From: Stegostoma tigrinum
Taxonomy: Eukaryota
DNA: 64,000 nucleotides
NCBI RefSeq assembly: GCF_030684315.1
Contig: NC_081398.1
Coordinates: forward strand, 2,902,402 to 2,966,401
Direction of reading: 5' to 3'
Part shown: positions 4,906-63,099 of the stretch, in pieces
Numbering within the stretch: the stretch's first letter is position 1
Layout of the letters: each line of letters starts with the position of its first letter
The notes under the pieces: generated by a model
What the model was told of the DNA's origin: nothing
What the model saw: the letters and a program-made list of their open reading frames with translations, nothing else
Database searches by the model: none
Translations under genes and position numbers: made by a program

Positions 4906-7800
4906 AGAAATCAGAGTTTTACAGCATGGAAAGAAAAGTTATCCCATGCAAATCAACAAGCATTCATCAAGTGTCATATAGATACTCTTCAAGTGTCTTA
5001 AGAGTTCCTGCATCTACCACTCTTTTAGACAGTGAGTTCCCAATGCCCACTATCCTCTAGGTGAAACATTTTCTCAAATCCTCTCCAAACCTTCTGCTTC
5101 TTACCATGAAAATCTACCTCCCCCCACCTCTACTAAGGAAAAAAATTTCAAACCTAATCTATGAATGTCATGACTTTGTATACCAGTCATGTCCCCCCTC
5201 AGCTTTCCTCGCTCTTCAGAAAACAATACCAGCCTAAATAGTTTATCTTCAGAGCTAAATCGCTCCAGCCCAGGCAACATTCTAGTGAATCTTCTCTGCG
5301 CCTCTCCAGTGTCGTTTCATCCTTTCTATAGCAACAGAAGCATAGAAGAAAAGAGCAAGAAGAAGCCATTCAGCCCTTCAGGCCTGCTCTGCCATTCTTC
5401 ACGATTATGCCTGATCATCCGACTCAATAGCTTAATCCTGCTTTCTCCCCATGACCATTGATCCTTTTTGCCCCAAGTGCTATATCTAGTGCATCTTGAG
5501 TACATTCAGTGTTTTGGCATCAAATGAATTCCACAGGCTCACCACTCTTCGGGTGAAGAACTGTCTCCTCATCTCTGTCCTAAATAGCCTACCCCAAATC
5601 CTCATACTGTGACCTCTGGTTCTGGACACACCCACCATCGGGAATATTCTTGTATCTACCCTGTCCAGTCCTTAAACAATTTTATAAATCTCTATGAGAT
5701 CCCTCCTCATTCATCTGCACTCCAGCGAAAACAATCGTAACCTAGTCAATCTCTCCGCATATGTCAAACCTGCCATCCCCAGAATGAGCCTGGTAAACCT
5801 TTGCTTCACTCCCTCGAGAGTAAGATCATCCTTCCTCAGAAAAGGAGACCAAAATTGCACACAATGTTCCAGGTGTAGTCTCACCAAGGCCCTGTATAAC
5901 TGCAACAACACATCCCTGCTCCTGTCCTCGAAACCTCTCACAATGAAGACCAACAAACCATTTGCCTTCTTCACTACCTGTTGCACCTGCATGCTTACCT
6001 TCTGTGACTGGTCCACAAGGACATCCAGGTCCCACTGCACACTCCCCTCTTCCAATTTACATCCCTTCAGGTAGTAATCTGCCTTCTTGTTTTTGCTTTT
6101 GAAGTGAACAGCCTCACATTTATCCAAATTATACTGTATCTGCCATTGATTTGCCCACTCACCCAACCTATCAAGATCATGCTGAAGGATCTCTGCATCC
6201 TCATCACAGTTCACCCTCCCACCCAACTTGGTGTCATCTGCAAACTTGGAGATGTTACATTTTGTTCCCTCATCTGAATCATTAATAGATATTGTGAATA
6301 GCTGGGGTCCCATCACCAATCCCTGTGGCACCTCACAAGCTACTGCCTGCCAATTTGAAAAGTGCCCATTAATTCCTGCTCTCTGTTTCCTCTCTGCCAA
6401 CCAGTTTCCTATCTATCTCAAAACACTTCCCCAATCCCATGCGCTTTAATCTTGCACATTAATCTCTTATGTGGGACTTTGTCAAACACTTTCTGACAGT
6501 GACTAAAACTGTACACAGTACTCCAGCTGTTGCCTAACTGATATTACGAATAGCTCCATCATTACCTTTTTGCTCGTATACTCAGTGCCCTCACTAATAA
6601 AGGTAAATATTCCACATGTCTTCTTAATCACCTTATCTACATGTCCTGCTGCCTTCAAAAATATGTGGACTTGCAAACCAAAGACGCCATCATCCTTGGC
6701 ACTCCTCAGGATCCTATCATTCAAGGTGAATTCGCTTACCTTATTAGTCCTCCTAAAATGTATCACCTCACTTTCCAGAATTAAATTCCAGTTCCCACTG
6801 TATAGCCCATCTGACAAGCCTGTCTATGTCATCGCATAGTCTGAGGGTTTCCTCCTCAATATTTATACACAACCAATTTTCATGCAAATTTACTGATTAT
6901 ACTTCCTACATTCAATTCTAGATCATTTATGTGCACAATGAACAGCAAGAAACTCATGTTTCGCCACTGGACACAAGCTTCCTGTTATAAAACACCCATT
7001 CAACAATCACCCTTTGCTTCCTGACACCAAGCCAAGTATGGATCCCATTCACCAAATTGCCCTGGATTTCACAGGCTCTTGGCTTCTTAACCAGTCCATC
7101 AGCAAGACCTTGTCAAACTTCTTACTGAAATCCATCTAGACTCTATCAACTGTATTGTCATCTATACACCTTGCCGTCTCCTGAAAAAAATTAAATTTGT
7201 TAGACATAAACTCTCCCTGACAAAGTTAATCCTTGTCAAAGGTAGATTAATTTTGTCAGAATTAACTCCCTCAACTTTTTCCTGCAGTTTCCCTACCACT
7301 GCTCTACCATCAACCAACCAATTAATACCTACCACCAGTGTCCAGCTATCACCACCATTCTGCTTCCACTCCTTCCCGCCACTCTATCTGCAGCTCTCCC
7401 TACTCACCCTGCTATCCAGTCCTGAAGGAGGGTAATACCTGAAGCGTAACTGCTCCTTTCCTGCAGATGCTGCCTGTCCTGCTGTGTCCTTCCAGCCTCC
7501 TATTTGTCTACCTTAGATCTGCAGTTTATTTTGTCTCTCCTACCACTGATGTTGGATTCACTGGCCTGTAGTTTCCAGGTTTACCCTAACCACCTTTCTT
7601 GAATAATAGCATCATACTAGCAATTCTGTGGCCAGAAAAGGTTCATAAAAAGTAATGTCAGAATACCTGTAATCTTCTTCCTTGTCTCCCACAGAATCCT
7701 AGGACACATCATCTGGGCCTGGGGATTTATTTACTTTTGAGCCCTCTAAGCTAATACTTGTACCCTCTCAGTGCTAATTTGTTCAAGTATATCATAGTTT
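4905..7800 (-). mobile_element. Degenerate CR1 LINE containing a nested CR1 copy (about 5335-6500) and a Penelope-type insert (7302-7538)
   Basis: ORFs 5711-6400 (VPQGLVMGP, FADD) and 6503-6817; insert flanked by TSD cctaccactg (7292-7301 and 7539-7548). Confidence 0.85.
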
Positions 7801-8374
7801 CCCTCCCTAATTTCTCTACCTGATCTCATCTGATAAAGTTTTCAAAATCATGAAGGGACTGGTTAGAGTTGATAGGGAGAAACTGTTCCCAGTTGTAAAA
7901 CAGTCAAGAATGAGAAGGCACTGATTTAAAGTGATTTGCAATAGACTTAAATATGACATGGGAATTTTTCCTGCATACAATGATTGTTTTGGGCCTGTAA
8001 TAATAGATAAATATGAATAAATCAATCCTTAAATAATAAACCATCACCTAGTTGTCAATTAAAATAATAAATTGCATGCACTACCTGGAAATGTGGTGGA
8101 GGTGGTTTAACTGATACATACAAGAGTGAAATAGCTTATTATTTCTATTTAAGTAATGTGCAAGGGTATAGGGAAAAGATGGGATAAAAGCACCAAGCCT
8201 TGATGCTCCTTTGGAGAGCCGGTCCAGACATGATAGATTGAATGGTCTCCTTTCATGCTGTAACACTTCTATGATGCTGTGAACATAATACCCTTTAAAT
8301 CATGTTTTCTAAATGTCTGGCATGATATCTCCCCCATTGCTGCAAATCACCACATTCACACTTCTGAGAGGCCA

Positions 8375-8800
8375 AGTAGTAGTTTCATTTTGTCTGTAAA
8401 GTCAGAAGATGGGGGATCCAGTCCCACTCCAGGTGTTTGGGCACATAAATAAGCTTGATACTTCCAGTAATCTATTGAGGGAGTGCTACACTATTCAAGG
8501 TAGCATCTTTCAGATGAACCATTAAACCAAGATTCACTCTGCTGTTAGAGATCTATAGAAATCATATCAGGCTTGAAACTGTTTCTCCCTCCACAGATAC
8601 TGCAAGACTCATGGAGTTTCTCTAGCAGTCTGTTTTTATCCCCTGGGATGCATGTAAAAGATCCATTGGCATTATTTTGTGTGGAACAGCAGGGAAGTTC
8701 CTGATGGTGTCTTGGCTAATATCATAGACAATATTTGCTCATTATCACATTGTTGTCTAAGATCTTGCTGTGGCCAGATTTGCTGGGACATTTCTTGTAT
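8375..8800 (+). mobile_element. Old tRNA-derived SINE, Deu-domain/SacSINE1-like; related copies on - near 31090-31400 and 35330-36060
   Basis: Core motifs gagggagtgct..tctttcagatga..ttaaacc and gtaaaagatcc; family name from recall. Confidence 0.55.
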
Positions 8801-9149
8801 GGTAGCATTGACAGCAATCAAACTTTGTGAATGTTCAACAGATTGATAACCATTGGTTGCATTATGCAACAAAATACTTTCAGACAATTGCAAGGGTTTT
8901 ATTGTAATTCTATAATTTAAAATAAACACGTTTCCACCATTCTCTATTGGATCATTTCCCTGTTTAGAAGCTAATTCGCCTACTGAGGTAGAAGCCAGCT
9001 CTTTTCTTAAAAAACGCTGCCACTAACTAAACTGTCAATACGCAAATAACTGACACTCCACACACCAGGGGCAACAGAAAACAACAACTCTGCTTTCTTT
9101 ATCTACATCCAATGATTTAGAGATCAGCGTGAGAACTTCGCTCCTTCTT

Positions 9150-15480: not shown

Positions 15481-16141
15481 TTGTTGTTAGTTGATGGGAT
15501 GTAGGTGCCATTGGTAGGTCAGCATTTATTGTCCATCCCTAATTGCCCAGAGTCATATTGCTGTGGGTCTGGAGTCCGATGTGAACCAGATCAACTAAGT
15601 ACAGCAGAACCTTTATTTAAGAAGGAAAGAGACAAAGAAAAGCTAACGAAAGGCCAGTTAGCATAACACTTGTAATTGGGAAAATGTTAGAGCTATTATG
15701 AAATTGATGTACAGGTAGAGCATTTGGGAAATCATGCCCTGACTAATTGTCTAATGTTCTTTGAGGAGGTAACAGAACAGAGGTAGAGACAAACTATTGC
15801 ACCACAAGAACTCCTGATCCCTATGTATGACTAGATTTTCCAAATCTACATCAGACTGTATAAATCCATGTAAATGAATGACATACTGTAAGTGAAAAAA
15901 AAAGAAAATCTAAAAATCAAGACAGTAGCTTCTATTCAATGTCAGGAATGGTCAGGTCATATCCTTATAAATGTGCTCAGACATGCAAAATAGAAAAAGG
16001 GAAAGCAGCAGATGTAATAATTTTGAGTTTTCAGAAGTTGTTTGATAAGGACCCGCATGTTAGCCTACTTAGTAAGTTAAGAGCCGATGATGTTGGAGGT
16101 AGTATATTAGCTTGGTTAGAGGATGAACTAACTAACAGAAC

Positions 16142-16368
16142 TCAGCTTATAGTCCAACAGGTTTATTTGAAAACACAAGCTTTCGGAATCTTACTCCTCC
16201 TTCAGGTGTTAATGAGAGAGGTAGTATCAGACACAGAATTTATAAGTAAAAGTTCAAAGGGTCACACCACTGATGAGGATGTACTAAATAAGCATCTTGG
16301 ACTATAACTTGGTGTTGTGTGATTTCTGACCTTGTCCATCCCAGTCCAACGCTGGCACCTCCACATCA
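16142..16368. mobile_element. Short Penelope-type insertion (second family) with inverted ends inside a CR1 remnant
   Basis: ttatagtccaa..ttggactataa inverted ends; TSD-like aactaacagaac / aactaaaagaac; hammerhead-like motif on - at 16172-16210. Confidence 0.7.
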
Positions 16369-17289
16369 TAACTAAAAGAACACAGAGAGTTGGGATTAGG
16401 GGAATGTTTTCAAAATGGCACCTGTAAATAGTGATGTGCCACACAGATCAGTACTGGGGCCATAATTATGTGCAATATATGTGAATGACATGGATGAGGA
16501 AAGTGAACGTACCACAGTCAAGTTTGCAGGTGATACAAAACTCTGCAGAGGGATATAGACAAGATAAGTGAGCGGGTTAAAAAAAAACAAACTCGGCAGA
16601 TGGATAGATTATGCATTTAGCAGGAAGAATAGAAACCTGATTTTTATTTAATTAGAGAGACTGTGAAAAGCTACAAATAGAGGGATTTGGGAATTCTTGT
16701 CCAAGACTACAAAAAAAATCTAAATTCAGCAGTTAATATCAAAGGCAAATGCAATGTTGGCCTTTGTTTCAAAGGAGATGGAATATAGAAGTAGGGAGGT
16801 AGTTGCTAAAACAACACAAGAACCTGTCAGACCACAGCTGGAATACAATGAACAATTTTGGGTCCCTTTGGGCAGTCAGAGAAGCTTCACTAGACTGATG
16901 CCAGGTATGGAGGGACTGTCTTGTGAGGAGAGATTGAATATAGATTGGGCCTATACTCATTGGAATACAGAAGAATGAGAGGCGACTTTTTTTAATATAT
17001 TCACTCATGGAACATGGGCATCACTGACCTAGTTGCCCTTAAGGAAGTGGTGGTGAGCTGCCTCCTTGAACCGCTGCAGTCCATGTGCTGTACTTTAACC
17101 CACAATGCCCTCGGGGGGGGGGGGGGGAGCGGGGATGTGGGGGTGCTATTCCAGGATTGTAACCCAACGACAGTGAAGGAATTGTGATACAGTGATACAT
17201 TTTCAAGTCAGGATGGTCAGTGGCTCAAAGAGAAGCCCGCAGATAGTGGTGTTCCCATGTATCTGCTGCTCTTCTCCTTTTAGGTTCCT

Positions 17290-22600: not shown

Positions 22601-24456
22601 GGGGTATAGACAGGGTGGATAGCAAAAAGCTTTTTCCCAGAGTGGGGGACTCAATTACTAGGGGTCATGAGTTCAAAGTGAGAGGAGGAAAGTTTAAGGG
22701 AGATATGCGTGGAAAGTTCTTTACACAGAGGGTGGTGGGTGCCTGGAACGCATTGCCAGTGGAGGTGGTAGACGCAGACACATTAGCGTCTTTTAAATTT
22801 GGACAGGTACATGGATGGGCAGGGAACAAATGGACACAGACCCTTCGAAAATAGATGACAGGTTAGACAGAGGATCTTGATCAGCGCAGGCTTAGAGGGC
22901 CGAAGGGCCTGTTCCTGTGCTGTAATTTTCTTTGTTCTTTGTTTGTGGCAGGGTAAGATACTCCAGTCAGAACTTATCTGCTCATCAGTTTCCTTTCCTT
23001 CTCCTTTTTCTTTACTTTCCCCACTCTGCAGTACTTGCCCCACCGCCCCCCCCATCCAACTTTTAACTGTATCGCTACCTGAAGGAAGAAGTTGGGTTGC
23101 AACCAGAGATCATGCAGAGCTGAACACGTGGGCCGTGTACCGCAGTGGCAGTGGATCCAGTGTGAGCCAAAGCAATGGTAGCAGATCAAGCATGGACTGG
23201 AGGATCGAACATAGGCTGGAGGTGGTAGCAGATTAGCCAGTTTGGCGGCAGCTGTCTCAGTTCCTCCCAAGCCCAATTCTTGACAATCAATTCGGAGACC
23301 AGAGCGGGTCTTTCTCCCCTCCTGGGTGTCCTGCCATTGGGAGCATCAGCGTCAGTGGTGGGACTGGGCAGGACTCATGGACTGACCTAGATAGGCTGTA
23401 GCTGGGACTAGGTGCCTGCTTCGTGACTGAGCATTCCAGGCACATCTATGGAGATGAAGAAGGGCCTAGGCCCGAAACATCAGCCTTCCTGCTCCTTAGA
23501 TGCTGCTTGGCCTGCTGTGTTTATCCAGCTCCACACCATGTTATGTCCCATCTATGGAGATAGGACTTTGGCTTTTGAGATCTGAACCTTTTTTTTAACC
23601 TTTTGACTCGGTTACAAAACTGGAATTAAATATTTAACAAAGATGGCACCAGGAAGTGGCGACTATCTGTACTGTTCACTGTACGCATGTATTTCTATAC
23701 TTAGTATGTGTGACAATAAAAATCTAAATCAAGATCATAGTTAATGTGTAACTGATTTCAGGGATATCTGGCCATTCCTATGAATGTTCAGATCTGTTCA
23801 GATTTTTGTCCTGTTGGCGCTCTGGACACTGCCCCATGAACGCTGCTATGTCGCCATCCAATCCTGGCCACCAGACATAACTTCTTGCCAACATTTTCAT
23901 TTTGGAAACTCCTGAATGACTGTGGTGGAGTTCAGCTTGGACCTGGTGGCGACCTATGTTCCGGACAATCTCTCTTGCTCCCCATAATAATATGCTGTCC
24001 TCTAAGCTAATCTAGTCACACTGGGTGCAGAGAGGTTTAAAGTCTTGTTATGATGCTTCCTTCGCTTTCCAGCCTCCTGATTTCTCTCTCTGCTGTTGCA
24101 CATAAGGACTGGGTGGGCCTTGTCAATGTACAAAGTGGTTTGGTACCTTTGATAGTCCCTAGACCTTTTGAAAAATGTCTGGGTATTTAATTCACTCTGG
24201 CAGCTATCTTCTAATCAGAAAATTTTGAGTGAATCAAGTTGAATGTTCCCCAACCAATTCCACCCCATCAAACTTGAGCCAAAGTGGTAATCAGTGGTAG
24301 TTGCATGGACTGCTTCTCATAGGAAACCAGAACCAAAGTTAGACTCCTGTTTATATCTATCAGCCAGACCTTTCTGATTGGCCTAGGTTAGCTACCCCAA
24401 TCGGGGATCTCCTACTCAATGAAATCCATCTGGTAAACCTTGTTCCAATCACTTCA
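19625..24456 (-). mobile_element. Internally deleted Gypsy LTR retrotransposon, integrase split by a 3-kb insert
   Basis: Integrase core TDNGTSFTS..ERSVQTLK (20393-20674); zinc-finger region ELHHSHSGVSKMKMLARSYVWWPGLD at about 23800-23940; related LTR pieces at about 19625-19794 (PPT adjacent) and 24345-24456. Confidence 0.8.
20713..22940 (+). mobile_element. 5'-truncated CR1 LINE inserted in the Gypsy integrase
   Basis: ORFs 21240-21956, 21949-22302, 22312-22854 with KSPGPDGIYP, QHGFVQGRSCLTNL, FADD; few stops/frameshifts. Confidence 0.92.
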
Positions 24457-27149: not shown

Positions 27150-27487
27150 TTATTCATTCATGGGTTGAGGGCGTTGCTGGCTAGGCAGCATTTATTGCCC
27201 TTCCCTAAATGCCCAGTGGACAGTTAAGTGTCAACCACGTTGCTGTGGGTCTGGAGTCACAGGTAAGGATGGTAGTTTCCTTCCCTAAAGGACATTAGTG
27301 AAGCAGATGGGTTTTTCCAACAATCGACAATGGATTCATAGTCATCATTAGACTTAATTCCAGATACTTATTGAATTCAAATTCCACCATCTGCCGTGGT
27401 GGGATTCGAACCCAGGTTCCCAGAACATCACCTGGGTCTCTAGATTAACATTCCAGTGATAATACCACTAGGCCATTGCCTCCCCTA
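27150..27487 (-). mobile_element. tRNA-derived SINE (~340 bp); other copies 25135-25497 (-), 28795-29130 (+), 52965-53305 (+)
   Basis: A box tggcctagtgg and B box ggttcgaatccc; 3' tail ggcaataaatgctg shared with the second LINE family (e.g. near 60060). Confidence 0.85.
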
Positions 27488-46560: not shown

Positions 46561-49500
46561 TGGCTTGAATTATCTGCCTGTACTTTATTTGTGATTGTAC
46601 AGTATAGAAAAAAGACCTGTCTGTCCAATTCACTATGCTGACTAAGCTTCACCAAATAAACTAGTCCCATTTTCCTGCTTTTAGCTCATCCTGCAAACTT
46701 ACCAATTCCTGTACCTGACCAAATGTCTTTAAATGTTGTAACATGCGTGCATCTACCACTGCCTCTGGCAATTCATTCCACATAAGCCACCTTGTAGAAA
46801 AAGCTGCCCCTCACTTCCCTTTTTTAAACTGAATAGTGGATGGGTTTTGGGGAGTCAGAAGGTAAGTTACTTCCTGTGGGATTCCTCATGTCTGACCTCT
46901 TGTAATCACTGTGACCAGCCCATTTTGTTCCTAGTTAATGGTAACACCAGAGTGGTGTTACTGGGGATTCAGTGACGGTAATGCCACAATGTCAAGGTTC
47001 AAAGGTTAGATTCTCTTGGACAGTACTTGTGGCAAGAAGTTTGCTACTTCTAAGCCCAATTCTAGATATTGTTCAGGCCTTGCAGCTTTTTGGTCATAGG
47101 CTCTTCAATATCTGAAGAGTTGTGAATGGTGCTGAACATTGTACAATTAGTGACCATCTCCACTTCTGATCTTTAAAATGCTGAGAAAGTTATTGAAGCA
47201 ACTGTATTTGGGCCTAGAAAACTAAATTTATCTCCAAGATTTTGCTCTGGAACTGAGGTGACTGATCCCCAACCACACACCCTCTTCTTTGTGCTAGGTG
47301 TATGATTCCATCCAGCAGAGAATTTTACCCCACGTTGTCTAGTTCTGCTAGGGCTCCCTGATGCCACACTTGGTCAAAAGCTGCCTTGGTGTCAAAGCAG
47401 TCACTTGTCTCAACTTTCAGAGTTCAGCTCTCCATTTTTGAACCAAGGCTGTACTGAGGTCAGGGCTTTGTGGCACTAGTGGAACCAAAATGAGCATCCA
47501 AGAGGAGATCCGAGATAATGGGAACTGCAGATGCTGGAGAATCCATAACAAAGTGTGGAGCTGGATGAACACAGCAGGCCAAGTAGCATCTCAGGAGCAA
47601 ATGCTGCTTAGCCTGCTGTGTTCATCCGGCTCCACACTGTTATCCAAGAGGAAATTATTACTAAGTAACTGCTACTTGATAGGACTGTTAAGGATCCCTA
47701 CTGAGTAGACTAGAGTGGTAACTGGTTGCATTGATTTGTCCTTTTTGTAGATGGGTCATATCGGAACAACCTTCCCAATTGCTGGTAGATACCAATTGTA
47801 GCTCTGGAGCACAAATCTTCAGTATGACTACTAGAATGGTGTCCAGGCCTGTGTAGCCTTTGCAACATCCAGTGCCCTCAGCTAGTTCCTTGATATCAGA
47901 TGAAGTTTATCAATTTGATAAAGGCTGAAGTGAGCAAAATTTAAAAACAGGGAAATTTTTGGATTTGAATAATTAAAGGTTGGCTATGCTGGTGTCCATC
48001 CTCAAGATGGATGCAGATGAAGGGAGAGCTGGAGAATTGAGTACATGTACAATAATAGTATTTGGTGATCTATGTGAGGAACTTGAACAAAACAAAATTG
48101 AGGAACTTAAATCTGAATTGATATTTCAGATTATGGATAATAAGATGTTGAATTTTAAGACAATTATATAATAGATTTCAGTTTATCCACATGTAGGTTA
48201 TTTAAGCAGGTCATCACTTGATGTTCTTGATCGTACTTTAACCTTTTAAGGCAAAGGGGTGGGAAAGTAACATCTTGCCCTATAAAAGCAAATGTTTCCA
48301 AGGAAGTGTTTTTAATGACTCTCATGTTAAATATTTGACACTCAATTTCATTAATAGTATGGCTGCTGACTTTAGTTACAATTACACTTTTTTTAAAGAT
48401 AAAGAATGATGGCTCCCTTTTCAGAGGTAGTATGGAAGTATTTAAAATCAGTAGGATCAGGGCCATAATCTTTTGCATCAGCTCCTCCAAATGCAATTAA
48501 ACAGCATGAGAGCATGGAATTGGTCACTTTTTTAAAGGTGGGGTAAAAGTAATTAAATCAGTGAGCTATCCTTCACACATTTACATATGTCACCTGTAAT
48601 TTAAACACAGGACTGATCTCATGTGGAGCCAAGCTTTTACATTAAGCTAAATTAGAGCATGCAAATAGGTGACAAAATGTTGTCACTAGAATTGTATTTA
48701 CAACTGTAAGAATTGTTGAGCTATTCCAACCCCTGGGGAGGAACTGTAGGGTTAGTGGGGATACTTTTTGTGAAGCTAGCAGTTTTATAGCTAAACTAAG
48801 TCACTGATTTTTCACAAAGAAAGCACTAATTGATTAATCTGATTATAGTATTCTGCCTAAGCATAGACAATATAGATTGTCCTAACATTGAGTTAGCTTC
48901 ATTAACCTAGAAAAGTACCAGGCAATTGCAAGCAGGGTGTAGATAATTTTGCTTTTACAGCTAAGTGAGGAGCATCTGGATCCAGGCTTCCAAGGTTTTC
49001 TAATCAGCCTGTTTTAATTCTCAATCCTGGAACAAGTAGAACTTCAACTCAGGCCTCCTAACTTGAGTGGGGACACCTACCACTGGGCCTCGAACCATTT
49101 TATCCCTATTCTGTCAATTGAATGTGTCACCATATAACCCACAGTATCCCATTGATTTTTGACTTAAAGTAAATCTGATTCTGCTTTCTAGGCAACCTGT
49201 TCCAAGGTTATTACCCACCTTGGGAACAGGTGGCACTTGAACGAAGGTCTCCTGGCTAAGTAGGGACACTACCAATGCTGCAGAACCCTAATCTCATTTA
49301 GTCTTAATCTAGTTTATAACAAACCTGTCCAGATGTTCCCACTTCTGGACCAGGTGCGATCAAGTTGGTCAAACAAGAACTCGCTTTAAAACAATGTTGA
49401 TTATTTGCGATCAATCTGTGCCCCTCAATGCAGATTAATTGTCCCTCAGAATTGGTTCCAATAGCTTCACTAACAGGTTAGGTTGACTACCCTGGTTTAT

Positions 49501-52428
49501 TCCTTGCTCCTGTGAATATATTCACAAGGTATTGTGGTATCATCCTCATCAATTGGCATTACATTGTGCACTGGTCAGGTAGCAATCAGATGACTTTTTA
49601 AAAGCATAATCAAGAGATCAAAATTGCTGCCCAATTCTGTTACATCTCCATAAGCTATGTAACAGACTGTAAAGGTTACCCAAAGGCACTCAGTACTTTA
49701 AGTCCTTTCTCATGGAATTCAAGTTCTTTAAAATTAATTTTAAGATTACTTCATTTCTGGGTGTGTGTGTGTGTGTGGTCTAATTCTCCATATTTATTGA
49801 TGGAGAACCAGGCCTCTAGGAGTTCCTGTGCTTGTCTCTGTTTGGCCTGTCCTAGGATGCTGATGTCCCACTCGAACTGGTTGTTCTCCTTTTTATCCAT
49901 GTGGATGGAGATAAGTGATATTCATGACCAATACTTGTGCTGAACAGCTCATTTCTGAAGGGTCCTGCCCCAAAACATCAACTTGCCTGCCCTTCTGCTG
50001 CCTGGCCTGCTGTGTTCCTCTAGCTCCACACTGTTACATCTGACTCCAACATATACAGTTCTTACAATCTCTTGAACTTCTGCCTCTTTTTCATCTGCCT
50101 GAATATGTGATCATAGAATCCCTACAAAGTAGAAGTAGTCCATTTGGTCTATCAAGTTCCGTTTGACCGATCAGGTCCATGCCTATTTCCTCATCATGAC
50201 TTCATTTTTAAGATAGCAACATTTGAGGACATACTCATTCATCTTTTGTGTATGCCTTTTCATATAACTTCCTTCAGTCTTTTTGATGCAAATTCAACTA
50301 ACCTCTGAACTGAAAATATCCACTTTGCCCTCTTACTTGTTCTTACTTTTCCTCAACCGGTTGATCCAATGTAATTTCTAATAAGGGAACTCCAACTTCC
50401 TTTTTGATTTTTTTTTTTTTCCCCACCTGTTTCAAGCTGTGGCTTTGACCCTGTTACCATGCAGTTAGGTAAAAATCCCAGGATATATTTCCTGTAACAT
50501 CTCAGCTCTCTTTTTTTTTTTCTCTACTGGCTTTTCAACCTCAATAGGCATCACTCAACTGATCCACCTATACCATTTGAGGATCCAGAGCAGGGAATTT
50601 CTCGATTACTCCTATCACCACTTTTCATTGGACTGTCCAACCTCACCTTGTATAATGGAACACTACTCTTGCTATGAATTTCACAACCTTTTCTGGCAAT
50701 ACTCTTTCCAAAGTACATACCTCCTCATCTCTCACCATCTGATTTGCTCATGTATCTCTTTTTTTTAAAAATTTTACTTTCTTTACTTACTATGGTACAT
50801 AAGTAAACCTTACTCTCTCACAGGTAACTTCTTTAAAGAGAGCTGGTGCACTTATCAATCAATCCCTCACCAGCTGTACATTCTTTTGTGGCTGTTTAAC
50901 TTCCACTGAGATCTCCTTAACCACTTAATAAATCCCACACACTCATTCTGCTACAACACCTGTCTCCTCAGTGCTTTCCTTAAGTCACTAACTGACTTCA
51001 TGTGCTCTGCTTTACTGTACTGAAAGCATCAGTGTGTTTTTAACTTTTCCACCCTTGTGGGTTTCTTTTTCTAACCTGTGGTAAACTATCTTTACTATCC
51101 ACTGAGGTCTTGTTTTCCTTTACAACCTGAGGTTTTCTCTTTCCATTTCTATCCTTCACCATTTAAATTGAAGTCAGAAGGCAAACTTTGATTTATGAAC
51201 TAATTCATAATCTTCTGCTACTAATCTTGTAGTTATTGCACATGAGTTCTCACTACAGGGAGTGAATTTTTGAACTATCCAAAATAAGTAGAGCATCATA
51301 TGTCAGATCTATTTTCAATGACCTTATCCATACATCAGTCAATTTATGATCCTTTCAAACTGTTTGACCAGGTTCCCTCCTTAGATTCCACAAACATTGT
51401 CTGTAGGCTTTTGTCATTAGCTCACATACTTAGCTATTTTCATGACTCATACTCTCCAGGTACCTCCTCTGATAGACCTGGTGAGGTATTGCATCACTGC
51501 CTACCAACTTTGAGAATCAACAATATTCACAGTCACTGGCCATTCCATTTGTTTAGCCACTTTCTCAAATGAAATGAAAAAGGCTTCTGTCTCTCTCATC
51601 CAATGCTTGGGAATATTGAAACAGATTACCTGTAGGCTTTTGGCTATGATGGATTTGCTCTTCGCTTTCCCGATCACCACTACAATCTTCTGTCTTTGCC
51701 TCTGCCATTTTAAATTGACTTTCTTTTTCCATCACCAACTTCTGAAGTTCATGACCTCTTTCTTTTTTCCTCTGTTCTGCTAGGGCCTTTCTTTCTTTTT
51801 TTCCCCCCCATGCCTTTTAAATAGAAATATTTAAACTGTTTTATTTGTTTTTCAAATACATTTGCAGTTGAATTTTGGCTTGCATCGTATTTACAATTGC
51901 CAGGACACGTGCTGCAATGATCTCCCCTTACCTCCCAGAAACAGGAATCTCCAACTTCAATTTATTTGCCAATTCCAAAAGCTTTGCTTTGCCCACTTTC
52001 TGTAAAACATCTGAAGTGAAATCTTCCACCCCAGGAAACTCTTAGTGACTGAGACATGTTACTATGTAAGGCACATCCTGTTCAAACCAACCAAATACAG
52101 CAGCAGGAATAAAGACACCAACACTCACCACTTGCTGTCTGAGTCCGATTGTCCTAAACCCATCTGGAATTGAGGATTTTTAGTCTGATGAGCCCCCAGT
52201 TTGTTATTTTACCAGATTTTATCAACTATATCAAGGAGATAGCCTCGACCCTAACTTTTCTTATTTAAAGGTTAGTGTAAGGTGCAGTGTTTCAGCTGTA
52301 ATTTGACTAGTCACACTACATGGTGTTAAGTAAAGCACACTTTTTATTCTTACTCTTTAGTTAAAATACAAACAAAAGAAAGAAGAATTGATATAACTAA
52401 CACCATTCAACAACATAACAGAATAATA

Positions 52429-52652
52429 TCAGAGATAATGGGAACTGCAGATGCTGGAGAATTCCAAGATAATAAAATGTGAGGCTGGATGAACACAGCA
52501 GGCCAAGCAGCACCTCAGGAGCACAAAAGCTGACGTTTCGGGCCTAGACCCTTCATCAGAGCTCTGATGAAGGGTCTAGGCCCGAAACGTCAGCTTTTGT
52601 GCTCCTGAGATGCTGCTTGGCCTGCTGTGTTCATCCAGCCTCACATTTTATT
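52429..52652. mobile_element. Young Penelope-derived palindromic insertion with a hammerhead motif on each strand
   Basis: Arms about 52469-52561 / 52562-52654 with one visible mismatch; 14-bp TSD ataacagaataata (52415-52428, 52653-52666). Confidence 0.9.
52558..52597 (+). ncRNA. Minimal type I hammerhead ribozyme motif (mirror copy on -)
   Basis: CUGAUGA (52564-70), A, stem II GGGUCUAGGCCC, GAAAC-GUC (52584-91); AGAGCU upstream can pair with AGCUUU downstream as stem I. Confidence 0.7.
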
Positions 52653-53394
52653 ATAACAGAATAATAGATTATTTAACAACTCAACAACATCCCATAAATA
52701 CACCCCTGGAAGAAGTAAATTCAGTAAATCAGTGACTCTCATGCAATGTTTCTACGGTCCAGGAGGAAAGAACTGAAAATTCTGGCAGTGACTGAACCCA
52801 AGCATTTGGCTATAGGAGGGATAGATGCATGGCAGCTTCTCGACCCCAACAACTAAAGCTAAATTAAATCTCTGGCTCTGTATGAGTGTGACTCCACCCA
52901 TTTATGCAGCTTCTATTTTGCTAACTTAAGGCTCAAGGCCTTACAAGCTGCATACTTTATTGACTGGGGAGACAATGGCCTAGTGGTATTATTGCTGGCC
53001 TGTTCATCCAGGGACCCATAGCCTGGGAACTAGGGTTTAAATCCTGACATGGCAGATCGAGGAATTTGAATTTTAAAAAAAATCTGGAGTTAAGAATCCA
53101 ATAATGACTGTGAATCCATTGTTGATAAAACTCATCTGGTTCGTTAATGCTCTTTGGGGAAGGAAACTGTCATCCTTACCTGGTCTGGCCTACATGTGAC
53201 TCCAGACCCACAGCAATGTGGTTGACTCTTAACTGTCCTCTGGGCAATTAGGGATGGGCAATAAATGCTGCCTGGCCAGCATTACTCTTACCCTGTTAAT
53301 GAACAAAGAAACAGACTGCTCACCGCCCCTGTCTCCAGCTGTCCATTTAAAAAAAAGGACAAAATACGCCTCTTAAAGCTACAGTTTTGTCACA

Positions 53395-54623: not shown

Positions 54624-54639
54624 CTGAAAGTTTTAAAAA

Positions 54640-54890
54640 AACAAATCGCTGCAAAAGCTCGGCAGGAGAGAAATCAGGGTTAACGCTTCGGGTCGAGTGA
54701 CCCTTCCTCGGAACACAACTCTGATAACTCAGCAGGGCAGAAATCAGAACTAACTCCTCAGAGTGTTCCGAGGAAGGGTCACTCGACCCGAAGCGTTATC
54801 CTGGTTTCTCTCCACAGATGCTGCCAGACCTGCTGAGCTTTTCAGGCAGTTCCTGTTTTTGTTTCTGGAATTCAGCGCCCGCGGTTCTTT
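54640..54890. mobile_element. Penelope-derived inverted-repeat insertion (third family)
   Basis: 54675-54716 and 54763-54805 are reverse complements with stem GGGTC-ACTC-GACCC. Confidence 0.8.
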
Positions 54891-55850
54891 CCATTTTGAT
54901 TTGCTCGCTGAAAGTAGCCATTTCAAACGGAAAATTGAGTGAGTTGTTCTGCAGTTAACAAGTACCCAGGGAAAATTCGAAATCTGCTCCCGGGACCTGA
55001 GCGTCCACACCCGGCCGCACCCCGCCCAACAGATTACGTGACAACATCCCAGTCCCACACGTTCTCCAGGACTCCCAACCCTGACTGTTTCCCCACACAC
55101 TGTCGTCCGCCCCAACTCTTTTCCCGGGAGGAGCACCCAGCCTCAACCCATTGAGCGGAAAGCCGCCCGTTAGTATTGGGAAAGCAGCTGATCGCCTGAG
55201 AACGGTCTAGGCCCGAAACGTCAGCTTTTGTGCTCCTGAGATGCCGCTTGTCCTGCTGTGTCCGTCCAGCCTCACATTTTATTATCTCGGATTCTCCAGC
55301 TTCTGCAGTTCCCGTTATCTCTGAGCGGTTGAGTATTGCAGTGCGCCAGCAAACCTGAGGGAGTGAGGGCGAGGAGCAACAACATGAGGCAGGGGACGCT
55401 CCGACCTGGTCAGCAGCTTCAAACAAAAATCGCTGGAAAAGCTGACAGCATCCTCTCAACAGTTTTTCTGTCTGTCCCTGTGGCCCAGAGGTTTCTCCAC
55501 TTTGTATTTTTGTTTACGCCCCAACAGCTGGTTAAGCTGGGCGCCTGGCTGCTTCTATGTGTTTACACGGAGCGCGGTGGGTCCGCTCGGGAAATGCCGG
55601 CGGCGATCCTGGAGTCACTCCAGATACCCAGGGGCCGAGGGAGGGGGGGGGGGGAGAGAAAGGGAAACAAAAAAAATAAACTTTATCCTAAATTTTCTCG
55701 TATCTCTAATGAAGGTGACATCGAACTGTGGTGGACTTGTGCACATCTCACCGTGTCTCCAGAGATGAGAGTGACTATTAAATTGCTTCCAGTCTAACAC
55801 TCGGTTCGATTGGTTATAGATACACTGGTTGCTTAGTGAGCGAATCGGTG
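54880..55850. promoter_or_regulatory. CpG-rich promoter-like island
   Basis: Visible CpG excess over flanks; GC boxes (ccccgccc about 55020, ccgccc about 55107), ttacgtga CRE-like site about 55034. Confidence 0.6.
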
Positions 55851-56664
55851 GGATGTGATAACAGGAACTGCAGATGCTGGAGAATCCGAGATAATAAAAT
55901 GTGAGGCTGGATGAACACAGCAGGCCAAGCAGCATCTCAGGAGCACAAAAGCTGACGTTTCGGGCCCAGACCATGAATTTGTCCCACCTTTGGCGGTTCC
56001 TTGCTCAACCTGTTCGTGGAAATGTCGACTGGTTCAGTGGGTTAGATGGTTTGGTGGGTGGGGGTGGGGGGGAAAGCCTGGGAGTGTTGGTGTGCCAGGG
56101 GGACTTTTGCCTCATCAGTTGTTCGAATATAACCCTTTTCTGATCAAATGGCGCAGTGAGTAGCCTACCTGACTGTGACCCAGTTGATCCAAGACTCAGC
56201 TGCGGTGGTTGTAACGTGGTTCTCAGGTAGGTCCTTCCAGTGCAGGCGTTTCTGATCAACTTGTTCCGAGATGTGATGACATCCCTCTGGTGTAATGGAC
56301 GGATGAGAGTGGCCTTTGTTGCACATCACCTCTTGGATTCTTCCTGGTCGAATGCCAACGTCACGAAGCAATTTGTGAAAGCGCTCAGTTCTTTACCCAA
56401 GCAAAGTGAACGGTCTCCAAAGCAATCAGCCACAGGCAATCGATCAACCTGACCGATGGGATAAACACTTCCCACGGGTACTTGAACCGGTAGCAAAAGG
56501 CTGCAAAATTACACTTGGAAAGTTAAGATCAGTGACCCCGAAATGTGCTGTTCACCGAAGAGCAGCCCCTTGCTTTTTAATTGCTACCAAGTCCTTTCCC
56601 AATTAGTTTAGAAGGAGCTTAGCCCTGAGAAAAGGTAACGCCAAACGTTAGCATATTAAGAACT

Positions 56665-56863
56665 AACGCAGTGTGGAGCTGGAGAAACACAGCAGGCCAG
56701 GCACCATCAGGACGTTTCGGGTCGTGATCCTTCCTCAGAAATGGGCCCCGAAACGTCAGCTTTCCTGTTCCTATGATGCTGCCTGGCGTGCTGTGTTCCT
56801 CCAGCTCCACGCTGTGTGTTATCTCTGACTCCAGCAGCTACAGTTCCTACTATCTCTGAACAA
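56665..56863. mobile_element. Penelope-derived inverted insertion disrupting the glycosyltransferase exon
   Basis: TSD attaagaact (56655-56664, 56864-56873); removing it restores frame HIKNCLVVTVFML. Confidence 0.85.
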
Positions 56864-58211
56864 ATTAAGAACTGCCTGGTAGTCACGGTTTTCATGTTGG
56901 CGATGAAAAGTTGATGGAACCAGTAGCTCAAGAGTCCCATCAATACAAGGACATTTCTTGTTTGGGATTTTGAAGAACATCACGCCAATTTAACTCAAGA
57001 TGAGTTGTCTCCTGCAATGGCTGAACGAGGAATACACATCCGACTTTTTCGTGAAAAGTTTAGTACGTTGTTTGCTGAATGGATGGATCTATCGAAAAAG
57101 TTGCGGGTAAATTGTTGGTGATGGCTTGCTGGTGCGTCGATATAGACTTCTGTCACAAACTCTGGGTCCTACTTCAGATTCGCACCTCTTTTAAGAACTT
57201 CCCAAAACTTCATTGTCCCACTATTGCTTAACACAATCCAGCATTCAGCTAATACTATAAATGAATCATTACCAAGAAAATAAACGCGATGCTGCCAATC
57301 TGGAAGAAAAAAGACATTTATCTAAAGAAAGCTGATGAATTCCAAACGTGAACAGATGCTGCCAGAGCTGCTGGGTTTCTCCAGCAAATTCTGTTTTTAT
57401 TTACGCTGCCTTTTTGTTTAAAAATAGAATAAATTTTCATAGAATCCCCTCAGCGCGGAAACAGGCCCTTCGGCCCAAAAATCCACACCTACGCTCAGAT
57501 CATCCCAGCTCGACCCCTTAACCCACTTCATCTATACCTCCCCGAACACTACGGGCAATTTTGCACAGCCAATCCACCCTAGCCTGCACATGTTTGGACT
57601 GCGGGAAGAAACCCGCACAGACACGTGGAGAATGTGCAAACTCCACACAGACAGTGGCCCGAGGGTGGAATCAAATCCAGGTTCCTGGTACTGTGAGACA
57701 GTAGTGTTAACCACTGAGCCACCATGCCACATCTAATAAAGTCCTAACTTTTTTTCGACTGACAAAATGGGGATTGTTGGGAGTTAAATGTTAAATGGTT
57801 GGGATTGGGGTAATTAGTTGTCAGGTCGGTGTATGCATCTGGTCAGAAGGTGAATTTGGGTGTCAAGATGCACCAGTCAGGTCAGGGGTATAGTTGGGTG
57901 GTCAGGCAGGGCTAGTCTTGTGATGGTTCAAAGTGGAGTAGTGGGTTCAGGTTGAAGGGTAATCAAGGATTTGGGGGAGTAGTTGGGATTTAGGGGGTTG
58001 GTTATGGGATTAGGTCAGGTGGTTGGGGTGGTCAGGTTGGTTAAGTGGAAGGTCTGGGTGAGTGATTGAGGACTCAGTTTTGTAATTACCTAGGTCTTAG
58101 TCTAGATGTTAATCTGTCTAACATGGGGATGCACCCTTCAGTAATTGGTATTTTGCACAGAGTTCAGTTCATTAGAACTTCTGCAAAAATACACAACAGA
58201 CTCCATTAACC

Positions 58212-59165
58212 TCCAGATTCAACGTATCATTCTCCACCACTTCTGCCACCTGCAATCTGATCCCACTACGAAGGATATATTTCCCTCCCCACCCTTATCT
58301 GCCTTGTGGAGGGACCGCTCTCTCCACGACTCCCTCATCTGCTCCATGCACCCCATTAGCCCCACAACCTCTGGCACCTTTCCCTGCAACCGCAGGAGGT
58401 GCTACACCTCCCGCCTCACCTCCATCCCAGGCCCCAACAAAACCTTCCACATTAAACAGATGTTCACCTGCACATCAGCTAATATGGTATACTGTATCCG
58501 CTGTCCCTGATGTGGCATCCTCTATATTGATGAGACCAAGCAGAGACTCGGAGACCGCTTTGTAGATCACCTACACTCAGCTCGCGACAAACAACAACAT
58601 CTCCCAGCTGTGAACCACTTCAACTCCCCCTCCAACTTCCTGGATGACATGTCCATCCTGGGCCTCCTCCAGTGTCACAACGATGCCACCCAGAAACTGC
58701 AGGAACAGCACCTCATATTCCGCCTTGGGAGCCTGCAACCCAATGGTCTCAATGTGGACTTTACTAGCTTGAAAATCTCCCCACCTACAACCTCATCCCA
58801 AGACCAGCACCCCCTCTCATGTCTGCCTCATTGACCTGTCTGTCTTCTCTCCCACCTATCCGGTCCTCCCACCTCACTGACCAAACCTCACCACTACCTA
58901 TCTACAGACACCTTTACTAGCTTCATCCCCATCTCCTTGACCTGTCTGTCTTCTCTTCCATCCTATCCACTCCACTATCTACCTGCTATCACTGCCCCTC
59001 CTCTCTATTTATTTCAAGAGCCCCCTTCCCCTCCCCCATTTCTGAAAAAGGGTCCCAACCCAAAACGTCAGCTTTCCTGCTCCTCTGGTGCTGCCTGGCC
59101 TGCTGTGTTCCTCCAGCTCCATGCTTTGTGACCTTAGATTCCAGCATCGGTGGTTCTTATATTCT
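58212..59165 (+). mobile_element. Penelope-like retroelement 3' part: GIY-YIG endonuclease remnant plus pLTR
   Basis: FTCTSANMVYCIRCP*CGILYIDETKQRLGDRF..HFN..QEQHLIFRLGSLQPNGLN; decayed hammerhead at 59041-59072. Confidence 0.88.
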
Positions 59166-62074
59166 CTTAGTCAATTGTGTATTGTGCTGTCTGCAGTTGC
59201 AGCCTGCCTGTCCAGGTCTGCAGCTTGTTTAATTCAGTATCTTTGCACAGATACTTTGGCCAATGCTTGGCTTGATTTCCCAGCATGCTTGGTGTATTAT
59301 CTGATTCTGCCATTTTGAGCGGCCCATCCAGCTACAAATACCCTGGGGGGTTACCATTGACCAGGAACTGAACTTGACCAACCGGCGGTCCCTCCACAAG
59401 GCAGATAAGGGTGGGGAGGGAAAAACATCCTTCGTAGTGGGGTCAGATTGCAGGTGGCAGAAGTGGTGGAGAATGAAACATATATACAGTGCAAGAGCAA
59501 GTTGGAGTAAATTGCCTTCTGATTCCCCAAAGTCTGGCCACAATCTACAAGATATGTCAGGAGTGGAACAGCACATTTCTCACTTGCCTGGATAAGTGCA
59601 GTTCCAACAATACTCAAGATATCATCTAAGACAAGGCACCTGCTTAATTGGAGCTCAGAGATCTGTGAGCACTGCTTGGGCTGAATGTTGTTTCTGCACT
59701 CTCTACATTTTGTGCTTCTATGCAATTGGCAATGTCCAATTCACTCCGTCCATCATGGATGCTGAGTAGCAGCAGTGTGTACTACTTACAAGATGCAGAA
59801 CTTCACTAAGGTTTCTTCATTTGCACCTGCCAAACGCACAACACTAACATCTAGACAAGGGCAACAGATATATGGGAACACCATCATCTGCAAGTTCCCC
59901 TCCAAACCACATGCCATCCTGACTTGAAATGTATCATTGTTCCTTCAGTCTCAATATATTAAAGTCCTGGAAATCCCTCCTAACAGCATTGAGGGGGTTT
60001 ACCAAATGGACTGCAGTGGTTCAAAATGCCAGCTCATCATCACCAGAGCAGCTAGGGATGGACAGTAAATGCTGGCCTCGTCAGTGACATCCGCATCCAA
60101 CAAATTAATAAAACAAATTTTGTGAACTTTCTCTAGGACTCTGGATCCGACCAGTTCGGTTGAAGGCTCTTTCAAGATTACAAGTTCTTCCTGTCTCAGG
60201 ACTGGTCCTAGTGCCGCAGTTTGTGTCAGCCTGCCTTTTCCACTTATTTTTGTCACATTGTCTTGTCTCTCTTTGCCTGTCCTCAATGAATTTGAGTATC
60301 CCTATCATTTTGGCTCCCTGATCACTTTGTCTGCTTGTGTTGAGTTTACATGTGCTCTTTCAAAGCCGACGATGATGAATTTGTCAACTGTGAGGCAATT
60401 GTGAACTACATTGCTATTGGCAAAACCTCAAAGGAATTTATTTCTGGTTACATTCATCAACAAGTCAAGGTCTACCAAAATGGCAACAACAAAGTGATCC
60501 ATTATCTTTTGGTCAATGGAATCCACCTAGGCTTCCCAGCTGGTGGAGGATACATGGTGCCTCGATCATACACTCCAGAACTTAACCGGCAGTCTGAGAC
60601 TTTGTCTGCTTTCCCGGTTGATGATGTTTTCACGTGATTTATGGCTTTTGCTGGCAAGATCCTATTGAAACATAAGCAGTTTTACATGAAAGGACTCAAG
60701 TGCTGTGTGCAGCATTTTAAGGATGCATTTACTGTACATTCATTAACTTTGCAAAATAGTATAGAAATGTGGGAAATGTTACACAAAGAAAAATAAAAAG
60801 AATAATTGGATAGAGGTCTAATTACTTGGGTGAATGAAAAGCTTTATTTTCAGATACAATATGGAGCTACCAATCCTCCAGAATTGTCCTGGACACTGCA
60901 GGACCACTGATTAAACTCAGACACTAAGTAACATGGGAGATAAATCATTATATTGTTTTATCTTTTTCACCTTTCACTTTCTTTTGCTAATTTCGCTGCA
61001 TTGTAAGGAAAGGACATTGCAGTTAGGGGACAAGAGTTATTTGCTTGAGAATAGATGATTATCTAATTGTGTAAAATTGATCCTATGGGTTTACCAATAG
61101 ACCTGTGAAAGAGCATAAGGGTATGTGGTGAGGATGGATGTGCCTTGTGGTGTGGGTCAATTGATTGGAACGGGGATTTCATATAATAGGAGCTCCAGGA
61201 ATAGTTGGAAGCAGAGTTGGCAAACCTCTGACTAGACACAACCCATTATTCAGAAGATGAATTACATTTATATACTGCCTTTGATCTAGCAAAGCTTTCC
61301 ATGGTACTTCACTGGAGTGAGTATCAAATAAAGTGATATTATGACTGAAAACTGAAACTTTGGTCAATGAGGAAGATATGAAGCAGTGTATAAAAGTGAA
61401 ATGGTGTAGGGAGAGAATTGTAGAGTTAAGGGCTATGATAACTAAAAACAGGGACATCCATTGGTGCAGTGAGCAGAGCTGCAGAATGTGCAAGAGGCCA
61501 CTGTTGGAGGAGCTCAGAGATCTGTGAGCACCGCTTGGGCTGAATGTCGTTTCTGCACTCTCTACATTTTGTGATTCTATGCAATTGGCAATGTCCAATA
61601 ACAAGACTGTGTCTTGTGCACCTCACCAACTGAGTCACCATGGTTAGCTAGCATTATGGTGATTTAATCAGAGGATGTGGAGATATTCACCAAGGTCATC
61701 TCCCCATACCCTGGATCACACCACAAACAGTTGATCCTTGTACAGAACTGGGTTCTCAAATCTCCCTTGCTTCAGTTTGTTGATTTAACTGATTTTCAAA
61801 AAACAATTTTGATTGTGGCATGGAATGCTGTAATTTTAATCACCATTACTGTTAAGCAGTTCTAAGAATATCAGGAATTAGTAAGATTTTAATAAGTGAA
61901 AATAATTTTAATCTTTTCATTCATTTTATTAGAAGCACCTGTAATGTGATTGCTTGGTTGATATTCAGCTCTTTATTACACCAAAGATGTTGCAACGCCA
62001 CTGGCCAGCCCTCTGTTGCCAGTGGCTGTAGTTGTCACCTACTGAACCTCCTCAGCCAAACTTGCTCAGTTAAT

Positions 62075-62415
62075 AAAGTGTGGAGCTGGATGAATACAGC
62101 AGGCCAAGCAGCATCTTAGGAGCACACATCCCGCCCCCTTGGCCTGTCTGTCCTCCCCGGACTGACCTATCCCCTCTCTACCTCCCCACCCATACTCTCC
62201 TCTCCACCTATCTTCTCCTCTATCCATCTTCAGTCTGCCTCCCCCTCTCTCCCTATTTATTTCAGAATCCTCTCTCTTTCCCCCTTTTCTGATGAAGGGT
62301 CTAGGCCTGAAACGTCAGCTTTTGTGCTCCTAAGATGCTGCTTGGCCTGCTGTGTTCATCCAGCTCCACACTTTTTTATCTTGGATTCTCCAGCATCTGC
62401 AGTTCCCATTATCTT
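62075..62415 (+). mobile_element. Penelope pLTR fragment with inverted 5' piece; a second insertion at 62740-62879
   Basis: ctgatgaagggtctaggcctgaaacgtcagc at 62289-62319; second insert has TSD ctcttcttgcatga (62726-62739, 62880-62893). Confidence 0.85.
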
Positions 62416-63099
62416 TGCTTAGTTAATAGCTGGTTGATGGGTTGTTCAGGTGAAATACTGGTTCATACTTTTCCTAGAGGAGATAGCGGATCTGATTCTT
62501 TCTTATTAAACAATCCCTGAACAGTCTGTACATTCTTTTGCAGATCTTTAGCTTCCACTGGGATCTCCTTTACTACTTTAATAAACCCTACGAGCTTATC
62601 TTGTTTTAGTACATCTGTTTTCCCAATGCGTTCCCCCCCCACTCTAGTTGACAGTTTCCCTTGATATAATTAGTAAATCCATCTGGTACGAGATGAGGCC
62701 CTTTCGAGTACAGGTGAAACCTAACCTCTTCTTGCATGAAAGCTGACGTTTTGGGCCTATGAAGGGTCTAGGCCCGAAACGTCAGCTTTTGTGCTCCTGA
62801 GATGCTGCTTGGCCTGCTGTGTTCATTCAGCCTCACATTTTATTATCTTGGATTCTCCAGCATCTGCAGTTCCCATTATCTCTTCTTGCATGATTATGTT
62901 CTGCCCCGGCGGGTGCTCCTGATTAATAGGTCAATGGATTCCTCTGATTGGTGGGTCAGTGGGGTGTCTCTGGTTTAGTGGGTGCCTCTGATGGTGTGCC
63001 AATGGGAGCCTCTGGTGTTCAGTGGGAGTCTCTGATTAATGGCCAAAGGGTGACACTGATGGTTCAATAGGAGCCTCTCGTCGCTCTCTATCGAGTCAG

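Follow-up and report, generated by a model that had tools for sequence, protein, structure and literature searches.

Our analysis of a 64,000-nucleotide stretch of the Stegostoma tigrinum genome (assembly GCF_030684315.1, contig NC_081398.1, positions 2,902,402 to 2,966,401 of the forward strand; hereafter the window) indicates that the short repeats with hammerhead ribozyme folds dispersed in it, families A, B and C together with a fourth family D, are very probably the truncated and mostly decayed pseudo-long terminal repeat (pseudo-LTR) ends of several families of Penelope-like elements (PLEs), each with its own hammerhead that, judging from the sequence, is predicted to cleave only as paired copies. 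While a preliminary description of this DNA had regarded them as free-standing short repeats, this was not borne out, as long copies run into PLE coding sequence. The motif itself is real, but of a known kind, as its link to PLEs and the same four hallmarks have been in print since 2014 (PMC4209133).

Identity of the repeats

The genome was sampled in 74 stretches of 10 kb (740 kb) taken at round coordinates on large contigs, and long copies of families A, B, C and D showed PLE protein sequence upstream of the hammerhead-bearing end. In family A, translation of genome copies yields, in one frame, a reverse transcriptase followed by a cysteine cluster and a GIY-YIG endonuclease; the frame of locus L073 matched Pfam RVT_1 with an E value of 1e-5 and GIY-YIG with 4e-4, both below Pfam's curated cut-offs. 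Family C is joined to a PLE open reading frame (ORF) via a long 3' untranslated region (UTR) with a CA run (sample locus L130), and the protein link was found for family B at L138 and L266 and for family D at L064, L066 and L069, the latter with 41-44% identity to A. Full-length family A copies have the order pseudo-LTR with hammerhead, ORF and again pseudo-LTR. Counting from C3 of the hammerhead core as position 0, which places the predicted family A cut between +27 and +28, the first ATG of this ORF lies at +166/167, and upstream walking revealed partial tandems of up to 1.2 kb. The N-terminal part of the ORF, upstream of the reverse transcriptase domain, contains a short repeated peptide whose copy number varies (L174, L194, L197).

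Copies occur singly or head to head, their 3' ends cluster at two points approximately 35 nt apart (+124 to +128 in 39 and +89 to +96 in 40 out of 89 copies), and target-site duplications of 8-14 bp were present at six of the eight window insertions tested. The 3' points, the head-to-head pairs and the target-site duplications are published marks of PLEs (PMC8557442, PMC3846280), and the traits of endonuclease-containing (EN+) PLEs, i.e., partial tandems, an inverted 5' copy and a tail of 30-40 bp, are present as well. Two extra families, E and F (L147, L148, L102, L105), came from the sampled genome and are absent from the window; they have a Poseidon-like frame without linker cysteines, a stem II of 6-7 bp and the same ACGU palindrome as family A. 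The linker cysteine pairs are present in A, B and C and absent from the F frame. Placed by linker motif and protein likeness rather than by a tree, families A to D would be Neptune-type and families E and F Penelope/Poseidon-type.

A tRNA-derived short interspersed element (SINE) origin was considered as well and rejected, the window being without a tRNA gene. Rfam microRNA matches at 47560 and 52525 turned out to be head-to-head PLE ends, and a scan of the window with Rfam covariance models gave no hammerhead match at E values up to 1.

Architecture of the hammerhead motif

The three families proposed in the preliminary description, with their stems and their ACGU or AGCU palindromes, are present where it had put them or close by, and its assignment to dimer-type minimal type I hammerheads was right at the family level, with cleavage itself remaining a prediction. 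A strict descriptor of the minimal hammerhead matched three times in the window versus zero times in each of 30 shuffles, and 11 times in the sampled 740 kb versus once in 10 shuffles of that DNA. All 14 matches have an extra base between positions 9 and 10.1, although the descriptor left this base optional. The core CUGANGA ... GAAA ... UH has the majority base at every position in families A, B, C, E and F, the whole core is kept in 86 of the 206 recognisable copies, and pair 10.1-11.1 is G-C in six of seven family representatives and G-U in one.

Stem III is, as described, a palindrome without a loop, reading ACGU in A, B, D and F and AGCU in C; the variants ACAU and AUGU represent CpG decay of ACGU, and the palindrome of E is mostly decayed. 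As to the claim of a still-paired stem I, this is true of B, C and D and scarcely of A, where it comprised 2 bp in all 35 intact motifs of the 740 kb, none reaching 3 bp; the 6-bp stem I of the family A copy at 52564 is a product of its inversion centre. In families B, C, D, E and F, stem I has 3-5 bp, compared to a helix I of about 4-5 bp expected of a PLE minimal hammerhead. Computed self-duplexes of the 4-bp palindromes have low stability (-1.7 and -2.5 kcal/mol), no mixed duplex forms between the two, and free-energy folding of four real copies yields dimers other than the double hammerhead, which speaks against the predicted paired fold.

Covariation, selection and decay

The stems covary between families, in agreement with what had been proposed: in seven family representatives, 48 of 49 stem I and stem II pairs form, including 28 of 28 in stem II alone. 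When the 3' strands were swapped among families, the mean was 27 pairs and 48 was reached by one of 5,040 permutations, a figure that is not a strict probability, because the representatives were selected for good preservation and A, B and D are akin to one another. In the alignment, 10 cells showed change on both sides versus 3.0 in shuffles; here MAFFT did not align stem II correctly in E and F, so both rows are absent from stem II in this count, and the anchored count on seven representatives is the better test.

The further claim of past selection for obligate-dimer ribozymes would apply to the source elements but not to the window copies, which decay at CpG rates. Among 129 family A copies, three CpG positions were changed in 15-26% and the other fixed positions in 1-12%, and this excess at CpG positions fits the neutral decay by which inserted copies appear to change. 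Even on the source lineages selection was probably not strict, given the 2-bp stem I of family A and the G at position 9 in C1, where 9 out of 20 copies carry it; this set was selected for its similarity to the window copy, which itself has G9.

Genome-wide abundance

A profile search detected 299 PLE ends in the sampled 740 kb, namely 169 of family A, 83 of B, 14 of F, 12 of C, 11 of E and 10 of D, which extrapolates to approximately 1.3 million ends genome-wide when arms are counted separately; core, palindrome and stem II together are kept in 43 of the 299. The same search gives 29 ends in the window instead of the previously estimated dozen or so, a density that is ordinary for this genome and shows no enrichment. 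The very large genomic population that had been suggested was confirmed by an exact count of 94,491 perfect family A motifs, close to the approximately 102,000 predicted from 30 such motifs in 940 kb, while a single pattern each of B and C2 gave exact counts of 1,945 and 39, respectively. Overall, approximately 8% of the sampled DNA matches family A, related families included (79,266 of 940,000 bases).

Starts of short copies

Among 132 family A copies with at least 90% identity, 39 start at -6 to +1, five start in the 53 positions from -59 to -7, and 53 reach the end of the 60-nt reference. Of 106 perfect A motifs, 76 belong to long copies; the remaining 30 are short, with 27 of them starting at -1 to -5. 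Short copies of A, B, C2 and E begin 29-30 nt after a TATA-like box, at the edge of the hammerhead: the box lies at -34 in A, -33 in B, -37 in C2, -47/-48 in E and -46 in F, and the G-marked or commonest starts lie at -4 in A, -3/-4 in B, -7 in C2 and -18 in E, the last from two copies read by eye. Of the first 100 non-C matches at A -4, 67 have G directly before the start. At independent A -4 junctions without an inverted-arm explanation this base is G in 12 out of 15 (p = 2e-5), and at C2 -7 junctions in seven out of eight (p = 6e-4), with 26% expected in each of these tallies. An untemplated G is an accepted mark of a copied cap in L1 and SVA (PMC4859970). From the box-spaced starts and the extra G we infer a capped transcript that starts at the edge of the hammerhead. 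We consider it somewhat more likely than not that transcription begins shortly upstream of the core, by a few bases, and that the solo ends result from run-off after priming in the 5' pseudo-LTR.

Several observations weigh against this start site. The commonest single family A start is -1 (13 of 132) and not -4 (9 of 132), a peak that derives in part from subfamilies with other upstream sequence and from microhomology; at A -3 junctions, G accounts for just 5 of 11 purines; and the offsets for the G tests were picked after viewing the data, making the p values optimistic. In A junctions resolved by their target sites, G was clearly untemplated in one (L236) and lay within the duplication in two (L252, L308), and several family B junctions with G are explained by the inverted arm. 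No clustering of family F short copies was seen 30 nt after the box. Furthermore, among 30 full-length A copies just one begins at the proposed site, and about half continue seamlessly upstream, which requires tandem or circular templates. Neither a transcript end nor cleavage was observed; three contig runs inspected for RNA evidence revealed no readable starts, ends or splice joints, an outcome that counts neither way.

The 3' UTR of family A (L073, 7590-7830) contains a branch-point-like word followed by approximately 140 nt of pyrimidine-rich sequence without AG, ending approximately 22 nt before the core, and a second acceptor-like site directly precedes the ATG of the ORF. These acceptor-like sites suggest possible introns, and introns are known from other PLEs.

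Starts at the predicted cut site

Exact genome counts of family A starts gave 459 at +27, 3,095 at +28, 399 at +29 and 481 at +30, i.e., starts at the predicted cut lie approximately sevenfold above neighbouring positions. In approximately 63% of the +28 matches (about 1,950), two arms meet head to head with the four bases that follow the cut at their centre, and joins centred on two other 4-mers numbered 59 and 375, controls that differ sixfold from each other. Among the first 100 cut-site matches of A, 63 begin with AAA (46 of these occur in opposite-strand pairs and are thus palindromic) and 10 are compatible with microhomology to the inverted arm; many of the 27 left over (about 840 genome-wide) may be mutated palindromes or small deletions, and a non-palindromic excess is not established. 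In family F, 44 starts at the cut compare with 21 and 24 at the neighbours (p = 0.001), or 32 versus 21 and 24 (p = 0.08) after removal of 12 fold-back matches, which the neighbour patterns could not show.

Tentatively, these genomic starts may reflect templates cut by the ribozyme, although on these junction counts we lean against it. Two complementary DNAs (cDNAs) running off a cut RNA would each have a self-complementary 4-mer at that terminus, by which they would anneal head to head; sequence-specific microhomology could produce the same joins.

PLE ends and other features of the window

The copies in the window are less intact than they had been made out to be, with the whole core and palindrome kept in two of the ten previously listed, both of family A (52564 and 62289). 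The first belongs to a single insertion of two head-to-head family A ends (52427..52657) with intact motifs at 52564 on the plus strand and, previously unlisted, at its mirror partner 52559 on the minus strand; one arm stops near +93, the other has the tail to +127, and the insertion is flanked by a 14-bp target-site duplication. The second, with core and ACGU kept and G-U at 10.1-11.1, lies in a family A end with 3' UTR (62127-62421, plus strand), which together with a short inverted arm (62068-62128, minus strand) makes up 62068..62421. The other four listed family A motifs sit in short copies. The copy at 23455..23544 (plus strand, 13-bp target-site duplication) has a broken core, its motif at 23454, listed as 23453, having lost C3 and reading ACAU in the palindrome; that at 24551..24685 (minus strand, C3 at 24681, listed as 24650) has G12A, ACAU and one stem II mismatch; that at 55194..55324 (plus strand, C3 at 55196, listed as 55205) has a broken core with one change and a stem II mismatch; and that at 62740..62890 (plus strand, 14-bp target-site duplication) has a 5' inverted piece and lost the first two core bases at the inversion joint (motif at 62756, listed as 62758).

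Additional family A sequences comprise a tail and a copy that both begin within stem II (35807..35879, plus strand, and 55852..55974, minus strand), a decayed A-like copy (49950..50077, plus strand), head-to-head tails without a core but with an 11-bp target-site duplication and a weak Rfam microRNA match (47508..47644), and head-to-head A-like ends with a 10-bp target-site duplication (56664..56861), in which the previously unlisted motif at 56738 on the minus strand has the core and ACGU, one stem II mismatch and no stem I.

None of the three listed family B copies is intact. The short copy at 26889..26997 (plus strand, C3 at 26894) retains its core, but its palindrome now reads ACAU; the short copy at 34200..34302 (minus strand, C3 position at 34297) has C3U; and the head-to-head ends at 54635..54879 (motifs at 54711, minus strand, previously unlisted, and 54768, plus strand) both have U4C and A15.1G. 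Family B is further represented by a heavily decayed copy (28011..28115, plus strand) and a tail without a recognisable core (32907..32999, minus strand). The family C 3' end (16085..16288, minus strand, C3 at 16205) has AGCU, a 5-bp stem I, G in place of A9 and a TATA box 39 nt upstream, and its inverted arm lies at 16286..16373 on the plus strand. Family D contributes a 3' end with a decayed hammerhead (3003..3512, minus strand, C3 at 3094), a 3' end whose motif at 7422 has A9G and A15.1G (7304..7538, plus strand) and a tail without a core (37273..37379, minus strand). In addition, a decayed PLE coding piece at 58190..58808 (plus strand) covers linker, zinc finger and GIY-YIG region with 71% protein identity to A, and is followed downstream by 3' UTR and pseudo-LTR with a decayed motif at 59042 (58933..59175, plus strand). 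Short duplications of 96-97% identity lie near this piece (58224-58318/59385-59479 and 59650-59740/61509-61599).

Apart from PLEs, positions 1-1519 contain pieces of a long interspersed element (LINE) reverse transcriptase (Pfam RVT_1) in inverted arrangement, and the 99% identity of 1-341 to 1247-907 suggests a young insertion with inversion; an older copy of this LINE lies at 21129-22796. A dispersed repeat of approximately 350 bp, possibly a SINE, occurs in copies 68-83% alike at 25137-25499, 27144-27485, 28798-29131, 46235-46401 and 52964-53311, and a G-rich tandem array at 63663-64000 (68-bp unit, 5.1 copies, 95% matches) continues past the window edge. Elsewhere in the genome, six matches sharing one junction, approximately 90-170 kb apart (G000:C4:12.94-13.61 Mb), suggest a large tandem segmental duplication.

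Discussion

Taken together, these data suggest a model in which the element's protein would nick DNA and, with uncut RNA as the template, prime reverse transcription from within a pseudo-LTR, at +93 or +127. Long copies would arise when the 3' pseudo-LTR is primed, and priming in the 5' pseudo-LTR would lead to run-off at the capped RNA start approximately 130 nt away and thereby to short copies, which would consequently begin at the hammerhead's edge, 29-30 nt past the TATA-like box and often with an extra G. The likely dimer partners would be the two pseudo-LTRs of one full-length transcript, and a cut would remove its capped first 30-45 nt. Because stem I has just 2 bp, family A cleavage likely requires the element's protein, by analogy to the anole element. 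More speculatively, and with the odds in our view against it, the PLE hammerhead might be a decapping switch at the start of a TATA-driven transcript; the genome would then hold a fossil record of cap-start insertions with a copied G and of cut-start insertions, thousands of each, in which cut-start cDNAs with self-complementary AGCT ends joined head to head.

The pile-up of 5' ends may alternatively derive from stalling of the reverse transcriptase or microhomology joining at the hammerhead structure instead of a transcription start, with the G being incidental, which we consider possible but doubtful. Many junctions are indeed fold-back palindromes or based on microhomology (11 of 26 at A -4), and a long pyrimidine tract lies just upstream in family A; however, the start moves with the TATA-like box (-4, -3/-4, -7, -18) and not with the core, and at the C2 start, an A, fold-back predicts T where G is seen in seven of eight. 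Alternatively, the motif might have lost its catalytic activity in the most widespread family and persist there as a relic or a site of protein binding. The 2-bp stem I in 35 of 35 intact A copies and the spread of a C sub-lineage with G at position 9 are in line with this, as is the anole element, whose hammerhead mutants insert in vitro and for which no RNA reads began at the cut (PMC11167929). We nevertheless regard it as unlikely, since the core, the extra 9/10.1 base and the palindrome are kept while the stems were rewritten across Neptune- and Poseidon-type families, since a 2-bp helix I has been described for Penelope of Drosophila virilis (PMC4209133), and since 5' ends at the predicted cut exceed their neighbours in both A and F.

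That the short copies are independent non-autonomous hammerhead elements, comparable to non-LTR retrozymes or SINEs and replicating as their own small or circular RNAs, appears improbable. Although just one of 30 perfect C2 motifs lies clearly within a long copy, most B copies start at the hammerhead without a body, and PLE-derived retrozymes are reported in vertebrates including one chondrichthyan (10.64898/2026.07.22.740005), none of the seven tandem-repeat entries of the window overlaps a motif, and the short copies are unpermuted, lack the upstream TATA-like box, share their 3' points with long copies and match the ends of coding copies at 95-100% identity. Least probable by far is that copies are kept by host selection as working dimer ribozymes: with approximately 95,000 perfect A motifs two could fall in one intron, but core, palindrome and stem II survive together in just 43 of the 299 sampled ends, losses track CpG decay, and the intact copies are the youngest.

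The preferred reading, hammerhead-bearing PLE ends, agrees with Cervera and De la Pena, who described minimal hammerhead ribozymes in metazoan PLE ends with no activity as monomers and weak activity as dimers (PMC4209133), a dimer model restated in a later review citing Lunse et al. (PMC6765202); the same PLE hammerhead background is given elsewhere (PMC6155905). As in the 2014 work, we found type I motifs without loop 3, with a palindromic 15.2-16.2, the extra 9/10.1 base, G10.1-C11.1 and a short helix I, as well as several covarying families per genome, mostly as single truncated copies with some opposite-strand pairs (PMC4209133). The 94,491 perfect motifs of one family here, however, outnumber the approximately 4,000 motifs in coelacanth and 9,000 in Xenopus given there, and the portion of its main text consulted, supplements excluded, names no cartilaginous fish (PMC4209133). 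The whale shark has Penelope elements on record (PMC8455134), a 2026 preprint covers PLEs as well as hammerhead retrozymes across vertebrates (10.64898/2026.07.22.740005), and our literature search found no paper combining Penelope, hammerhead, Neptune and shark.

The families resemble described PLE clades in the reverse transcriptase with C-terminal GIY-YIG, the linker cysteine cluster (A, B, C), partial tandems, the inverted 5' copy and the 30-40 bp tail (PMC8557442). For Poseidon of Anolis carolinensis, Frangieh et al. reported that priming occurs internally at two sites, that the template is mainly uncut RNA and that protein assists cleavage (PMC11167929). Here, two internal priming sites would likewise give the tail, the hammerhead again lies in the pseudo-LTR near the ORF start, and uncut RNA would again be the main template; the anole ORF, however, starts in stem II, whereas the first ATG here is at +166/167, and genomic 5' ends are enriched at the cut here whereas no RNA ends were reported there in the anole (PMC11167929). 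Penelope of Adineta vaga likewise has a TATA-like box (there also an initiator), inverted pseudo-LTRs with palindromic joints and solo pseudo-LTRs, with duplications of 8-10 bp compared to 8-14 bp here (PMC3846280). Its solo pseudo-LTRs were ascribed to recombination or deletion, with the hammerhead unmentioned in the passages concerned, whereas many of those in S. tigrinum have their own duplications and start 30 nt past the box (PMC3846280). Animal non-LTR retrozymes share the type I hammerhead and PLE origin (10.64898/2026.07.22.740005; PMC7229834), but form tandem arrays with one ribozyme per unit, unlike the single or head-to-head copies here (10.64898/2026.07.22.740005). We found no published treatment of start-site or cut-site junction signals in a search outside which most subscription papers and all supplements lay.

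The role of PLE hammerheads in the cell has been called unclear (PMC8557442). What this genome adds is scale, as approximately 95,000 perfect copies of one family allow insertion junctions to be counted like an experiment, and what these junctions suggest is a start site next to stem I that can be put to the test and, less strongly, the use of cut templates. If the decapping-switch reading were true, the junctions would constitute in vivo evidence that PLE ribozymes fire, and the ACGU and AGCU palindromes together with stem I would keep the families from cutting one another.

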